Part shown: positions 18,627 to 24,705 of the stretch, in pieces | Position numbering within the stretch: the stretch's first letter is position 1 | How the letters are laid out: each line of letters begins with the position of its first letter | NCBI GenBank assembly: GCA_965227745.1 | Contig: OZ245769.1 | Coordinates: 6,296,974-6,360,973, forward strand | Direction of reading: 5' to 3' | Source of the DNA: Opitutaceae bacterium | GTDB lineage: Bacteria; Verrucomicrobiota; Verrucomicrobiia; Opitutales; Opitutaceae | DNA length: 64,000 nucleotides | Program-made: the position numbers and the translations under genes | The notes under the pieces: model-generated | Seen by the model: the letters and a program-made list of their open reading frames with translations, nothing else | Databases searched by the model: none | Told to the model about the DNA's origin: nothing

Positions 18627-19169
18627 ATGTCCACTGAAAACCCGACCCCCCGGGCCACCATGCATGAAGACGCCGGTTTTCTTGAACGCACGTTCGCGGA
18701 CCAACAGGTGCCGCTGCTCCGCTATGCGACCCGCCTGCTGGGTGGCGATGTCGATCGGGCGCGAGATGTCGTGCAGGACGTATTTGTTAAACTCATGGGG
18801 CAGCGCCACGAGGCGGTCGATGGCCACGCGGTGGAGTGGCTCTTCACCGTCTGCCGCCACCGGGCCCTCGACATTTTGCGCAAAGAAGGCCGCATGAAGC
18901 GCTTCGCCGATGGCGAGGCCGAGCGCGTCACCACCGTGGAGCCCCGGCCGGGCCGCGAACTTGAAGCCGCCGAGACCCATGCCGCCCTCGTCCGCCTCAT
19001 CGAACACCTCCCGCCCAACCAGCAGGAAGTCGTCCGGCTCAAATTCCAGAATGGTTTCAGCTACAAGGAAATCGCCCGCATCACCGAGCTCTCCGTGAGC
19101 AATGTCGGTTTCCTGATTCATACCGCCGTGTGCCGACTACGCACGGAGTTCGCCGCCCAGCGGCCGTAA
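18627..19169 (+). CDS. ECF-type RNA polymerase sigma factor
   Basis: Region 2 ([27 protein letters not shown] ... [16 protein letters not shown]) and region 4 ([44 protein letters not shown]). Confidence 0.85.
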   Translation: [180 protein letters not shown]

Positions 19170-19182
19170 GGAGACAGTACCA

Positions 19183-21819: not shown

Positions 21820-21960
21820 GGGTGGGGGTTGAGTTAAGAGGGCAAAGGACCAATCACCGCAGTTTCGGCGGATGGGTTGCGGTTCACTGACGCGTACTGC
21901 CCGGTTGATCGCGCTCAAGATTCCGGCGGCGGAGTCGTACTAGACTATAAGCCAACTTGG

Positions 21961-24705
21961 ATGACCACGGAATCGCCCACCGCCTCGAGGACTGCGGCTC
22001 CCGCCCCGCTCGAACTCAGCGTCGGGCAGCGCGAAGCCTTGACCCGCTATGCCGCGCAGTTGCTCGAAGGTGCGTCCGTTCACGCCGCCCACGTGGTCGC
22101 GGCTGCGATCGCTTCCGTGCAGGCGCGCGAGCCGGTCACGGACAGCGAACGTCCGGGCACCGCCACCGCTGGACCGGAACAGGCAGAAATTTACTTCAGC
22201 GCCGTCCGCCGCCAGGCGTTGGCCCGCCTGCGAAGTGAAGGTGGGGCGCAGCGCAAGAGCACTGCCGAAGGCGATGATGCTCCGACCTCGCTGGCACAGC
22301 GCGTCGAGCGCCTCACCCCCAAACAGCGCGAGGCAGTGTGGCTCACGTTTGCGCAGGGTTTTGGCTACGAACGCCTCACGCGGATCACTGGGCTTTCGCT
22401 CCACCACGTTGGCTTTCTGCTGCACTCGGCCTTGACCAACCTGCGCGACTCCACGGCGGCGAGCGACGATACCCGCGTCACCGATCACGTGCTCGGCGAA
22501 ATGAGTGCGGCGCAGGAAGAGACGTTTACCGAGGCCTGTCGGGGCGATCCGGCCTTGAAAGAGGCGGTGGCCAAAGCCCGGGCACTCGTCGCCGAACTGC
22601 GCGCGACCATGGGATTCGAGGCGGCGTGGACGACTGGCACGACGTCCAAGCCGGCACCGAAGAAGATCGGATCGCGCCGTCGCGCACTCTGGGTTAGCGC
22701 CGGTGCTTTGTTGGCGCTGGGCATCGGCGCGGCATATTGGTGGCTGTGGGCACCGCAGCCGCCTCCGGGGCAAGTTAACGCAGGGACCACGGAGGAGTTT
22801 CGCTTGCGGCCTGACTCTTGGAAAATGACGAAGCCGCTCCCGGAGCGGACGGAGGAGCGCACCACGGGAAATGCCGGTTCTTCTTCAGTACCGGGAGTTC
22901 GACCGGCTGCGCTGAGTGAACCGCGGCGGACTACATCGACGCGCTCCGATGACCCGGGCGACCAAGCACGACTGCCGCCCGTGAACTCGTCCGCCGGTGA
23001 CGGTGGTGGGAGTAGTGGGTCGGTGCCGAGCGGGGCCGGGCGCGGTCCGAGTGGGAAGCCGCAGTCCGGCGATTCTGCCGCCCCGTCAATGGCGAAAGCT
23101 GCAGGCAGTTCAGGTCGTGACCACGAGATTCCTCGCGCGGCAAGCGCGGTAAAAGACCGATCCAGCGGCGAGGTGAGTGAAGCGGCGAAAGGCGGAGCCA
23201 AAGATCGCCCTTTGCCGGGCGGTTTGAACCGAACGTCGGTCGCTTCGACGGGGAAAGCGCTGCCACTTTCCTCTTCAGCCGCAAAGGATCCAGCGGCGTC
23301 GGCGGGGCAATCGAAGGCTTCGGAAAAAGCGGGCGGCGTGACCGCAAGCGGGACCTCTGACGCGGTGGAGAAAGCTGCCGGCGACCGCGTCGATGATGGG
23401 CTGCCGGCGACGAGTCCGCTTTCGGCGCTCAAGGCCGTGATTAAAGAAAAGCGGACACCGGATGCGGGCGCCGCAGATGTATCGGCGTTGTTGGATGAGT
23501 ATTCGCCAATGGCGCGGCCGGCGGCGGCGGAGACGATACCTGAGCTGGCGGTCGGAGTTGAGGCGGCGCCTGCACCGTGGGCGGAGGATCGCCGCCTCGT
23601 GCGCGTGGTGCTCACGGCGGCCCCGGCCCGGGAAGCGCGCCCAGCGGCGGCGCACGTGGTGCTGCTCGTCGATGTTTCGGCTTCCATGGATGCGCCTAAT
23701 CGCCTTCCGCTCGTCGTGGCGTCGGCGCGTCGTCTCCTGCGCGGCCTCGCTCCGGCGGACCGCGTGAGCATTGTCACCTACGCGGGCGAAGCGCGGGTGG
23801 CGTTGCCCCCGACGACGCTCGAGCACGCGAGTGAAATCCAGGCGGCCCTCACCGCGCTCAAACCGGAAGGCATGACGAATGGCGGCGCGGGCCTGCGGCG
23901 GGCCTACGCGTTGGCGCACGCGGGCTTCGTTCCCGGGGGCGTAAATCGCGTGCTGCTTTGCACCGATGGCGATTTCAACATGGGGATCACGAGTGAAGGC
24001 GAGCTGACGGCTCTGGTCGCGAGCGAAGCGAAGGCGGGCATCGAGCTGGGGGTATTTGGCTTCGGGCGCGGGCGGCAGATCGATCCGCGGCTGGAGGCCC
24101 TCGCGACGGCGGGGCAGGGCGGGAGTGGCAATGTAACTACGCGGCGCGACGCTGAGAGGCGCATGGCGGCGGAGGTTAACGGCTGGTCGCCGACCCGCGT
24201 GCGCGATCTGAGTGTGATCTTGGAGTGTGATCCGAGGCGCGTCGCGGCGTGGCGACTGATCGGGTACGAGGAAAACTTTCTGCCGCCGGAAGCGCTGGGA
24301 CGGCGAGGTTTTGAGCAAAGTGAACTGCCCCCCGGCGAATCCGTCACGGTGCTGTTTGAACTGCGGTCGGCGGAAGGGACTTCCACGCGTGATGTGGCCG
24401 ACGCTGCCGCCGCGGTGATTGCCTGCGTGCGCTACCGGGACGGAAACGGAACCGCCCATGTGATCCGCGCCCCACTGGGCGACTCCGTGGCACGACTGAG
24501 CGAGGCGAGCGCGGAGTTTCGTTTCACGGCTTCCGTCGCTGATTTGGGACTCGCGCTGCGGGTGTCGCCGTTGCCGCATGCCCGGCTCGATGGCGTGGTG
24601 CGGCGAGCCGAGAGCGCCGCCGCCGATCTCGCCGAGCGCGACTACGGCGGTTATCGCGAAGAGTTCCTTTCGCTCGCGCGTGAAGCGCGCGAGCTGGCGA
24701 AGTAG
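21961..24705 (+). CDS. single-polypeptide fusion: degenerate ECF-sigma-like domain, anti-sigma-like segment, TM helix, low-complexity linker, vWA domain
   Basis: Residues after the start (MTTESP) align by eye to the 18627 sigma (ALTRYAAQLLEG..HVVAAAIASV; LTPKQREAVWLTFAQGFGYERLTRITGLSLHHVGFLLHSAL). Then DDTRVTDHVLGEMSAAQEETFTEACRGDPALKEAVAKAR parallels the 19183 N-terminus, followed by TM LWVSAGALLALGIGAAYWWLW. The vWA domain has an intact DVSAS MIDAS motif and YRLIGYEEN-like WRLIGYEEN. Confidence 0.75.
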   Translation: MTTESPTASRTAAPAPLELSVGQREALTRYAAQLLEGASVHAAHVVAAAIASVQAREPVTDSERPGTATAGPEQAEIYFSAVRRQALARLRSEGGAQRKSTAEGDDAPTSLAQRVERLTPKQREAVWLTFAQGFGYERLTRITGLSLHHVGFLLHSALTNLRDSTAASDDTRVTDHVLGEMSAAQEETFTEACRGDPALKEAVAKARALVAELRATMGFEAAWTTGTTSKPAPKKIGSRRRALWVSAGALLALGIGAAYWWLWAPQPPPGQVNAGTTEEFRLRPDSWKMTKPLPERTEERTTGNAGSSSVPGVRPAALSEPRRTTSTRSDDPGDQARLPPVNSSAGDGGGSSGSVPSGAGRGPSGKPQSGDSAAPSMAKAAGSSGRDHEIPRAASAVKDRSSGEVSEAAKGGAKDRPLPGGLNRTSVASTGKALPLSSSAAKDPAASAGQSKASEKAGGVTASGTSDAVEKAAGDRVDDGLPATSPLSALKAVIKEKRTPDAGAADVSALLDEYSPMARPAAAETIPELAVGVEAAPAPWAEDRRLVRVVLTAAPAREARPAAAHVVLLVDVSASMDAPNRLPLVVASARRLLRGLAPADRVSIVTYAGEARVALPPTTLEHASEIQAALTALKPEGMTNGGAGLRRAYALAHAGFVPGGVNRVLLCTDGDFNMGITSEGELTALVASEAKAGIELGVFGFGRGRQIDPRLEALATAGQGGSGNVTTRRDAERRMAAEVNGWSPTRVRDLSVILECDPRRVAAWRLIGYEENFLPPEALGRRGFEQSELPPGESVTVLFELRSAEGTSTRDVADAAAAVIACVRYRDGNGTAHVIRAPLGDSVARLSEASAEFRFTASVADLGLALRVSPLPHARLDGVVRRAESAAADLAERDYGGYREEFLSLAREARELAK

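Follow-up and report, generated by a model that had tools for sequence, protein, structure and literature searches.

A conserved sigma-like/anti-sigma/vWA fusion protein beside an ECF289-type sigma/anti-sigma gene pair in Opitutaceae: a possible membrane-anchored sigma mimic

Introduction

What might be the role of a protein that carries a sigma-like domain, an anti-sigma domain, a transmembrane (TM) helix and a von Willebrand factor A (vWA) domain in a single chain, when its gene lies directly downstream of an intact sigma/anti-sigma gene pair? This question is raised by a locus in a 64,000-nucleotide stretch of DNA from an Opitutaceae bacterium (GenBank assembly GCA_965227745.1, contig OZ245769.1, positions 6,296,974 to 6,360,973 of the forward strand), which is called the window in this study. 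There, a gene for an extracytoplasmic function (ECF) sigma factor (p1) is followed by a gene for a vWA-type anti-sigma factor (p2) and then by one long open reading frame (ORF) that encodes the fused protein (p3). Whether the fusion is genuine, where it came from and whether its product still works as a sigma factor are considered in turn below. Our answer is a tentative one: p3 is a membrane-anchored, self-bound sigma mimic and co-sensor that may tune the adjoining canonical pair, and not a working sigma factor.

The fused gene and its relatives

An earlier sequence-only reading of this region had described the gene pair and the single ORF after it, and ORFs were found exactly where it had placed them (Table 1). 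The third ORF opens with a TTG codon at 21877; the ATG at 21961, which gives a product of 914 residues, was taken as the start because the N-termini of the orthologues (MET/MTTE...) match it. The alignments that had been made by eye proved correct when repeated with BLASTP, which matched residues 69-178 of p1 to residues 75-168 of p3 (E=3e-17) and the N-terminus and TM helix of p2 to residues 161-333 of p3 (E=1e-8). The vWA-YfbK_C parts of p2 and p3 were 35% identical (E=4e-69). These E-values place the similarity far beyond chance, and sequence comparison thus supports the homology of each part of p3 to the matching part of the adjoining sigma or anti-sigma factor.

Profile searches, which had been named as a check on the sequence-only reading, separated p3 from its neighbours. 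The p1 protein scored well on Pfam Sigma70_r2 (34.9 bits) and Sigma70_r4_2 (51.8 bits) and on the general ECF model of NCBIfam, TIGR02937 (81.6 bits, cut-off 42.9), and the p2 N-terminus weakly matched two anti-sigma models of NCBIfam, NF052375 and NF010501 (E about 5e-6). In p3 the expected VWA and YfbK_C domains (the latter PF12034, which we take to be the former DUF3520) were recovered and Sigma70_r4_2 came just below its gathering score (24.8 versus 25.7 bits), but Sigma70_r2 was not matched at E≤0.1. On TIGR02937, p3 reached 13.9-16.2 bits, through residues 110-163 (sigma4). Pfam recognised a vWF_A domain (PF12450) in p2, and also in 15 of 28 fused relatives, but none in p3; residues 484-541 of p3 nonetheless align by BLASTP with the vWF_A region of p2. 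The succession of a TM helix, a linker and a vWA domain described at first after the sigma/anti-sigma part was borne out by a helix at residues 245-263 of an AlphaFold2 model and by the Pfam matches to VWA and YfbK_C. As read from the alignment, the hydrophobic TM stretch and its basic flank are kept across the fused family.

That family was found by an exhaustive HMMER search with residues 1-280 of p3 against 1.84 billion representatives. It returned 245 matches, and about 27 of the best 150 were proteins of 790-941 residues that aligned over residues 1 to about 270; a word-indexed search, which gave two matches for the p3 N-terminus and five for the family profile, had missed them. Fused proteins of this size range form at least 27 clusters at 50% identity from independent assemblies, and a metagenome scan gave at least five confirmed loci. 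Relatives of full length, 28 in number, align with p3 from end to end at 24-49% identity; JGI, ENA, NCBI and Logan are the sources of their assemblies, and one relative lies on an 8-Mb contig. Pfam detected VWA in all 28, YfbK_C in 26, Sigma70_r4_2 in 26 (E<0.01, best 2e-12) and Sigma70_r2 in one (E=0.0079). At the metal ion-dependent adhesion site (MIDAS), D571 and S573 are invariant in the family and S575 is nearly so. The organism names seen among the fused proteins were only those of Verrucomicrobia/Opitutaceae, and the automatic protein names were inconsistent: 'Mg-chelatase subunit ChlD/DNA-directed RNA polymerase specialized sigma24 family protein', 'von Willebrand factor type A domain-containing protein [Candidatus Didemnitutus...]', 'Ca-activated chloride channel family protein' and 'sigma-70 family RNA polymerase sigma factor, partial'.

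The relatives bear directly on the possibility that a sequencing or assembly error near 22440-22520, through a lost stop or a frame shift, merged a sigma gene with an anti-sigma gene. Nothing but its a priori possibility speaks for such an artefact. In each of the 28 relatives, diverged as they are and drawn from several assembly sources, sigma4 runs on without a break into the anti-sigma domain and the TM helix, and the alignment of the junction residues has no gaps. This uninterrupted junction all but excludes a missed stop or frameshift; we regard an artefact as exceedingly improbable, and the fusion, as first described, is genuine.

For a time the fused gene seemed to be a one-off. A scan anchored on p1, with one genome per species, had given 80 genome loci, and tblastn detected no p3-like gene in them. 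This view was overturned by the HMMER family and by locus L001, where the contig ends 89 codons into a fused gene that tblastn missed because only the poorly conserved N-terminus is present. The protein P0001, the NCBI entry with the 'partial' name quoted above, on a 1.7-kb contig, continues that gene. The L001 fragment lies at 13224-13489, and its last 19 codons (GPDGGTGAAADDRAVEKLF) are identical to the start of P0001; the join between two contigs of that metagenome-assembled genome (MAG) therefore falls inside the fused gene. An Arg-rich tail suggests a frameshift in P0001. Another protein, P0013 (166 residues), was considered as a split, free pseudo-sigma and was set aside as a truncated or frameshifted fragment, its C-terminus diverging abruptly after GFLLH.

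Loss of sigma2 residues and conservation of sigma4

We compared the N-termini of the 28 fused relatives with 81 non-redundant canonical sigma factors (Table 2). The replacement of DVVQDVF by HVVAAAI in region 2 of p3, as noted from the sequence at first, is real in this alignment, and the contrast drawn then between a preserved region 4 and a degenerate region 2 extends to the family, with the sigma4 invariants Q132, E134 and H165 kept in 96-100% of its members. Over all positions that are at least 90% conserved in canonical sigma factors, the mean retention was 0.40 for sigma2 (29 positions) and 0.62 for sigma4 (23 positions). Where the ECF signature reads D-x-x-Q-[DE]-x-F (region 2.2) and W...D..RK..R (region 2.3/2.4), p3 has HVVAAAI and IYF...A..RS..G. 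Region 2.2 of the clade to which the window protein belongs is mostly [DE]-V-V-[ED]-A-A-[LI], and p3 (HVVAAAI, IYF) is the most degenerate member of the whole family.

Table 2. Residue conservation in canonical sigma factors and in fused proteins (p1 numbering)
Position	Canonical	Fused
D47	100%	50% acidic
Q50 (region 2.2)	100%	11%
D51	100% acidic	29% acidic
F53	100% aromatic	39% aromatic
W71	100%	46%
R77, Q132, E134, L138	100% (Q132 99%)	100%
D82	100%	4%
K86	99% basic	39% basic
R89	100%	14%
F140	99%	86%
H165	100%	96%

In sigma70-family proteins, the Gln/acidic pair of region 2.2 makes the principal contact with the beta-prime clamp helices of RNA polymerase, and regions 2.3/2.4 serve -10 recognition and melting. 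It is mainly because regions 2.2 and 2.3/2.4 have been released from constraint that we call the domain a pseudo-sigma. Since region 2.2/2.4 residues that are invariant in canonical sigma factors are lost, the sequences indicate that p3 is most likely not a working sigma factor.

The same alignment bears on the proposal that p3 is a functional, membrane-tethered ECF sigma factor of the IutY/ECF52 kind, in which the vWA domain would trigger intramembrane proteolysis, the anti-sigma part would be degraded and the freed sigma would transcribe, among others, its own gene. Its layout of sigma, anti-sigma and TM helix is that of IutY and ECF52/48/53, for which proteolytic activation is assumed (PMC8999054, PMC5826349). 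The strong conservation of sigma4, including the helix-turn-helix (HTH), would also fit, as would the E-value of 1.8e-13 that some family members reach on the general ECF model. Set against this, Q50, D82, R89, W71 and F53, all invariant in the 81 canonical factors, vary freely in the fused family and with them the main clamp-helix contact; a single relative has a Sigma70_r2 match; and p3 itself stays far below the TIGR02937 cut-off, scoring through sigma4 alone. We consider a tethered sigma unlikely.

Conservation within the window clade is uneven. Mean identity is 70% in sigma4, 68% in VWA, 47% in YfbK_C, 42% in the anti-sigma domain, 37% in the sigma2-like domain and 20% in the linker, so that sigma4 is the most and the linker the least conserved part; judging from these sequences, the fused protein is under selection. 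Between the window and locus L083/84, identity amounts to 86% in sigma2 and 92% in sigma4 for the canonical sigma factor, compared with 52% and 76% for the fused protein, in which both sigma domains therefore evolve about three times faster. The NCBIfam anti-sigma model NF052375 matched 10 of 19 family N-termini. An HxxxCxxC motif was not found on reading residues 168-216 of p3 (DDTRVTDHVLGEMSAAQEETFTEACRGDPALKEAV...) or the family consensus.

The faster change of the fused protein would also make sense if the sigma-like/anti-sigma module were a vestigial, self-folded cap without a signalling partner and p3 acted only through its periplasmic vWA/YfbK_C part, for example as a co-receptor with the periplasmic domain of p2 or with a MoxR/DUF58 system. 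A MoxR-DUF58 operon does lie upstream, and VWA with its MIDAS is, together with sigma4, the best conserved part of the protein. However, sigma4 is as conserved as VWA, and at true-sigma positions (Q132, E134, L138 and H165), which exceeds what a passive cap would need. A mere cap is in our view distinctly unlikely, and the state of the sensor in the canonical anti-sigma factors, described below, bears on it as well.

Predicted structure of the N-terminal part

Residues 1-271 of p3 were modelled with AlphaFold2 from a 19-sequence family alignment. The model (mean predicted local distance difference test score, pLDDT, 81.7; predicted TM-score, pTM, 0.73) has helices at residues 21-35, 39-55 and 72-92 (sigma2-like), 111-161 (sigma4), 171-216 (anti-sigma, pLDDT 88-97) and 245-263 (TM).

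A Foldseek search of the PDB brought up mainly sigma factors, nearly all of them of the ECF type, and the sigma-like domains of PhyR, and all of the top 29 matches were of these kinds; the E-values were weak (0.013 and above), with probabilities near 1. PhyR is an anti-anti-sigma factor of Alphaproteobacteria, the degenerate ECF sigma-like domain of which has kept its fold and binds the anti-sigma factor instead of RNA polymerase. Compact, anti-sigma-bound forms gave target-normalised TM-scores of 0.60 (5uxx), 0.57 (5wuq), 0.54 (2lfw, the PhyR sigma-like domain with NepR) and 0.51 (4cxf), and an extended sigma bound to RNA polymerase fitted poorly (6dv9, TM-score 0.29, root-mean-square deviation 26.7 Å). 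The family profile matched the true sigma factor SigL (E=2.1e-9) and the PhyR sigma-like domain (2lfw, E=1.3e-8) about equally. The PhyR model was matched weakly by 14 of 19 family N-termini. Scores on the PhyR family model NF006623 were 16.9-19.9 bits, versus a cut-off of 240, and Pfam Response_reg, the receiver domain, was not matched in p3 or its 28 relatives. Taken from the pTM, the pLDDT and the fold matches, the predicted state of p3 is a closed one, in which the sigma-like domain is clamped on its own anti-sigma domain.

Genomic context and origin of the fused gene

Orthologues of p1 in the 80 loci are 45-81% identical to it and come mostly from MAGs of Opitutaceae/Verrucomicrobiota; the more distant loci belong to Planctomycetota and Limisphaerales. 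A p2-like vWA anti-sigma gene follows the sigma gene in most related loci with long enough contigs. A survey of relatives for split and fused versions, suggested at the outset, therefore gives both: canonical split pairs in most assessable loci and, in addition, the fused family with its 27 or more clusters.

In the class ECF289, derived from the old ECF20, the anti-sigma gene at position +1 encodes DUF3520 fused to a von Willebrand domain (PMC7826278). The window shows the same context, with sigma2 and sigma4 in p1 and, at +1, p2 with an anti-sigma-like segment, a TM helix, vWF_A, VWA and YfbK_C. By gene context and domains, the split pair p1/p2 matches the defining context of ECF289. An experimentally characterised member of ECF289 was not found in the literature searched. 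The question whether the whole arrangement is an already annotated ECF group thus has a divided answer: the split pair is, by its context, and the architecture of p3 was found in no paper searched.

Of the roughly 11 loci that could be assessed, 8 have a canonical pair next to the fused gene, and the genes come in either of two orders: sigma, anti-sigma, fused in the window, L001, L081/82 and L083/84, and fused, sigma, anti-sigma in L089, L091, L092 and L094. The contigs of L086/87, L090, L093 and L095 are too short to show a pair. Such adjacency in two orders argues for functional coupling that is not obligatory.

In a neighbour-joining tree of the vWA-YfbK_C region, the canonical anti-sigma factors formed one clade and the fused proteins fell outside it. 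The p2 protein of the window grouped with the p2 proteins of L083/84 and L001, and p3 with P0007, P0004 and P0005. Because the fused proteins fall outside the canonical clade, p3 is not a recent local duplicate. The first interpretation, a duplicated pair that had fused, thus stands as to the homologous parts and the fusion, and fails as to a recent tandem duplication. Rather, p3 belongs to an old and conserved family, which also occurs upstream of the pair or alone. As one part of our tentative overall reading, that family would have arisen by fusion of an ECF289-type sigma gene with its vWA/YfbK_C anti-sigma gene.

Full-length p2 orthologues have a D[VA]SxS MIDAS in nearly all cases, usually DVSGS; the window has ETSPT in p2 and DVSAS in p3. 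In L089 and L091, the canonical anti-sigma factor beside the fused gene is without a VWA domain. Loss of VWA there and the altered MIDAS in the window would suit the vestigial-cap idea, as they hint that the fused paralogue supplies the sensor. Against that idea, L083 and L001 keep an intact canonical MIDAS despite the fused gene, and anti-sigma factors without VWA also occur in loci with no fused gene within 10 kb. Since these two loci have intact motifs, the presence of a fused paralogue can be linked only tentatively to decay of the sensor in the canonical anti-sigma factor. Short canonical anti-sigma factors (about 410-600 residues) with vWF_A and YfbK_C and no central VWA were seen in L010, L035, L037, L038, L040, L046, L089 and L091.

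Other ECF fusions occur in the same lineage. An extra sigma gene in L019 was considered p3-like and proved to be a different fusion, ECF-TM-TonB_C. Proteins of this kind have an ECF core, a TM region and a TonB_C-like domain in 442-466 residues; the genes at 4155-5483 in L019 and at 14546-15946 and 19791-21251 in L083 encode such fusions and a 486-residue ECF protein with an unannotated extension. In L092, at about 3200-3700, the fused and sigma genes are separated by a small insert of two genes, the second of which encodes a protein that looks by eye like a ParE/RelE-type toxin (...YLIIYRINDAARLVEVIRVWDGRQDP).

Promoter-like motifs upstream of the sigma and fused genes

The region upstream of the sigma gene was screened in 79 related loci with the regular expression CTAA[GT]..-N10-18-CGT., and a match was found in 63, with a spacer of 14 nt in 55. 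The consensus upstream of these ECF289-type sigma genes is TTTTCTAAGAAA-N14-CGTYTAAC. A position weight matrix (PWM) built from the matches had a sole strong match in the window, just upstream of p1 (33.3 bits, Table 1); weak matches at 1190-1223 and 60751-60785 lay in or among overlapping ORFs and were dropped. The PWM is conservative, as it missed CTAATAA-N14-CGT promoters that are seen by eye in L092 and L094. In its consensus form, the -35 part TTTCT-A-AGAAA is a perfect palindrome, which coincidence or a site for a dimeric regulator could explain.

The PWM gave no match upstream of p3 or of any other fused gene, so p3 has no copy of the strongly conserved autoregulatory promoter of p1, which counts in favour of the mimic. 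The gap between p2 and p3 holds another ECF-type promoter-like motif (Table 1). Five intergenic regions that have otherwise diverged agree fully in its CTCAAG, in the CG of its CGT element and in the distance of the motif from the ATG: those of the window, L001 (13176-13201), L081 (626-651), L083 (9953-9979) and L085 (about 5222). In the window clade it has the form CTCAAGWTT-N13/14-CGTW and is followed by a conserved short leader, ATAAGYCRAATTG-N-ATG; a motif of the CTCAAG type is lacking before the fused genes of the other clade. The p1 and p3 motifs share the core AAG-N16-CGT. Judged by these motifs, p1 is the obvious candidate for the reader of the p3 motif, and autoregulation by p3 is also possible. 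No sigma70-type promoter and no + strand terminator were found between p2 and p3, and with no such terminator, read-through from the p1 promoter is possible. A conserved motif that is distinct from the p1 promoter and precedes the fused gene in five loci also counts in favour of the tethered sigma considered above.

The shared core also enters a different proposal, in which p3 is a membrane-anchored DNA-binding regulator (ToxR/CadC-like), the sigma4 HTH of which would bind, with no need for core polymerase, the -35-like AAG in the promoter of the sigma operon or in that of p3 itself. No domain is better conserved than sigma4, whose recognition helix reads VGFLLHSA (with a nearly invariant H155), and one member owes its automatic IMG name, 'CsgD family transcriptional regulator', to the HTH. 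The anti-sigma domain, however, occupies sigma4 in the predicted closed state, and anti-sigma binding explains the conserved positions equally well. We know of no precedent for an isolated ECF sigma4 as a tethered regulator, and we hold this proposal to be improbable.

A possible sigma mimic that tunes the adjoining pair

We return to p3 as a self-bound mimic and co-sensor. The topology that we infer has the sigma-like and anti-sigma domains in the cytoplasm, a single TM helix, and the linker, VWA and YfbK_C outside the cytoplasm. The sigma-like domain would be clamped on its own anti-sigma domain at the membrane. It could compete with p1 for the anti-sigma domain of p2, or the anti-sigma domain of p3 could capture p1. 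Partner exchange is plausible either way because the cytoplasmic parts of p3 are homologous to p1 and to the anti-sigma domain of p2, and because its sigma4 keeps the p1 invariants. Ligand binding, a conformational change or proteolysis at the vWA sensor, in which the MIDAS (DVSAS) is intact, would then shift the level of free p1. What the analysis shows is the domain layout, how conservation is distributed, the linkage of the fused gene to a canonical pair and a closed fold in the prediction; the loss of sigma activity, the cross-binding and the direction of regulation are what we infer in this scheme. The roles suggested from the sequence alone, as a decoy, as a scaffold or through release by proteolysis, are likewise hypothetical.

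A bolder version, which we find rather doubtful, is that Verrucomicrobia independently evolved a PhyR-like partner switch that works without phosphorylation, in which a membrane-anchored pseudo-sigma, kept in check by its own anti-sigma domain, would be handed to the neighbouring anti-sigma factor, or that domain would capture the true sigma factor, once the periplasmic vWA sensor binds a ligand or is cleaved.

Several observations weigh against a regulatory mimic. Fused genes without a pair nearby in L085, L088 and perhaps L096 mean that a purely cis-linked accessory role is not obligatory, and such stand-alone loci would suit a tethered sigma. Identity to p1 reaches 48-50% among the basal members P0012, P0014 and P0019, and the region 2.2 Gln is kept in 3 of the 28 aligned members, P0012 included; going by these sequences, some members of the family may still be sigma factors. 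The promoter-like motif of the window-clade genes would also fit autoregulation by a functional sigma. When the sigma-like domain of p3 was tested for co-evolution with its own genome's p1, no signal emerged, the cognate partner ranking 44th of 82 for sigma2 and 8th of 82 for sigma4. Finally, all experimentally studied sigma/anti-sigma fusions (IutY and SCO4117) are functional sigma factors (PMC8999054, PMC5826349).

Comparison with known systems

The fused protein is clearly derived from a pair of the ECF289 type, the hallmark of which p1/p2 match; the text describing that class covers split pairs only (PMC7826278), whereas p3 has both partners in one chain and fails the general ECF model. 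For the latter reason, it would probably be missed by a classification that relies on both sigma2 and sigma4.

Fusion of sigma and anti-sigma in one membrane protein is already known from IutY, ECF52, ECF48, ECF53 and ECF36 (PMC8999054). Like p3, IutY of Pseudomonas putida (ECF243) is a single chain that combines a sigma and an anti-sigma domain with one TM helix and a sensor outside the cytoplasm, and its activation by Prc/RseP proteolysis would, by analogy, offer a ready mechanism for p3 (PMC8999054). The two differ in that IutY has a competent ECF core, a FecR-type sensor and a link to a TonB-dependent receptor, whereas p3 has a degenerate sigma2 and vWA/YfbK_C and usually lies beside an intact pair. 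The actinobacterial ECF52 (SCO4117), ECF48 and ECF53 proteins share their overall layout with p3, with an ECF part, an anti-sigma-like part, a TM helix, a low-complexity, proline-rich linker and an extracellular binding domain (PMC5826349, PMC8999054). Their anti-sigma domain is of the zinc-finger (ZAS) type, their binding domain is a carbohydrate-binding module, and they pass as ECF sigma factors, whereas p3 has no HxxxCxxC, carries a vWA domain and has lost the sigma2 signature. Release by intramembrane proteolysis has been shown for IutY and proposed for ECF52/48/53 (PMC8999054, PMC5826349).

PhyR and p3 share a degenerate sigma-like fold, and both by fold and by profile the structures of PhyR rank with the best matches of p3. 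However, PhyR is soluble and controlled by phosphorylation through a receiver domain, whereas p3 has no receiver and is membrane-anchored, with its own anti-sigma domain and a periplasmic sensor. Mimicry of the PhyR type by p3, in which the anti-sigma factor of a true sigma would be bound and the sigma set free, may be proposed by analogy, from the homology of its parts to p1 and p2 and from the adjacency of the genes. Thus p3 resembles the sigma/anti-sigma hybrids and the PhyR mimics but belongs to neither. The vWF_A, VWA and YfbK_C set of YfbK-type vWA proteins makes up the C-terminal half of p2 and, apart from the vWF_A that Pfam did not detect, that of p3, and the MIDAS of p3 is of the canonical DxSxS form. 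Escherichia coli YfbK, the namesake of the Pfam domain, is not known to have a sigma or anti-sigma module, and we know of no ligand for this domain set, which therefore gives no clue to the signal.

No paper describing the architecture of p3 was found in the literature searched. New with respect to that literature is a conserved protein that joins a sigma/anti-sigma fusion with loss of the polymerase-binding signature and a vWA sensor, usually beside an intact pair. If p3 is indeed a mimic, sigma mimicry would be a recurrent evolutionary solution rather than an alphaproteobacterial oddity, and there would be a handle on the uncharacterised ECF289/YfbK-type vWA sensors. If the partner-switch version is true, the ECF289 sigma would receive a second sensory input through sigma mimicry. 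If p3 should instead be a working sigma factor, the region 2.2 signature would be dispensable, itself a surprising outcome. The fused family offers a clean test for sigma mimicry outside the alphaproteobacterial general stress response. Besides bearing inconsistent automatic names, the fused proteins probably lie outside sigma-factor censuses that require a full ECF core.

Feature coordinates and neighbouring genes

The features of the locus are collected in Table 1.

Table 1. Features of the p1-p2-p3 locus (positions in the window)
Feature	Position	Strand	Details
p1 operon, ECF-type promoter motif	18582..18615	+	TGTTCTAAGAAA-N14-CGTCTAATC; regular-expression screen and PWM
p1, canonical ECF sigma factor	18627..19169	+	180 residues
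p1 region 2	18711-18893	+	
p1 region 4	18981-19142	+	
p2, anti-sigma factor	19183..21819	+	878 residues; Pfam and NCBIfam matches
p2 anti-sigma domain	19207-19368	+	
p2 TM helix	19537-19593	+	followed by A/S/T/P-rich linker
p2 vWF_A	20395-20649	+	Pfam
p2 VWA	20698-21186	+	Pfam
p2 non-canonical MIDAS	20716..20730	+	residues 512-516, ETSPT instead of DxSxS; read from sequence
p2 YfbK_C	21223-21801	+	Pfam
p3, ECF-type promoter-like motif	21914..21939	+	CTCAAGATT-N13-CGTA; in 141-nt p2-p3 gap, about 47 nt from ATG
p3, sigma-like/anti-sigma/TM/vWA polypeptide	21961..24705	+	914 residues; one ORF; architecture common to 28 full-length relatives
p3 sigma2-like three-helix domain, degenerate	22021..22236	+	residues 21-92; AlphaFold2 helices 21-35, 39-55, 72-92
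p3 sigma4 HTH domain	22291..22446	+	residues 111-162; Sigma70_r4_2, 24.8 bits
p3 anti-sigma domain	22462..22608	+	residues 168-216, DDTRVTDHVLGEM...; homology to p2 N-terminus, AlphaFold2 helices
p3 TM helix	22684..22749	+	residues 242-263, preceded by basic KKIGSRRR stretch; AlphaFold2 helix 245-263
p3 low-complexity linker	22768..23400	+	residues 270-480, S/A/G/P-rich (S 16%, A 15%, G 14%, P 9%)
p3 VWA	23656..24150	+	Pfam VWA (49.1 bits) and VWA_2
p3 canonical MIDAS	23671-23685	+	residues 571-575, DVSAS
p3 YfbK_C (formerly DUF3520)	24202..24696	+	Pfam PF12034, 58.7 bits

Immediately upstream of p1, on the same strand, lie genes for a MoxR-type AAA+ ATPase (14482-15447), a DUF58 protein (15465-16799), a SpoIIM-like membrane protein (16796-17812) and an RDD-family protein (17809-18576). 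Locus L083/84 has MoxR, DUF58, SpoIIM-like and RDD genes upstream as in the window, and an extra GYF_2+RDD gene before the sigma gene. Proteins with vWA domains are the usual partners of MoxR/DUF58 systems, and those nearest to the MoxR and DUF58 genes of the window are p2 and p3, both of the anti-sigma type. In the window at large, GC skew takes positive values of about +0.1 to +0.27 between about 24 kb and 46 kb and negative ones beyond 46 kb; the cumulative skew peaks near 46 kb (about 44000-48000), which a change of coding strand or a replication landmark could explain.

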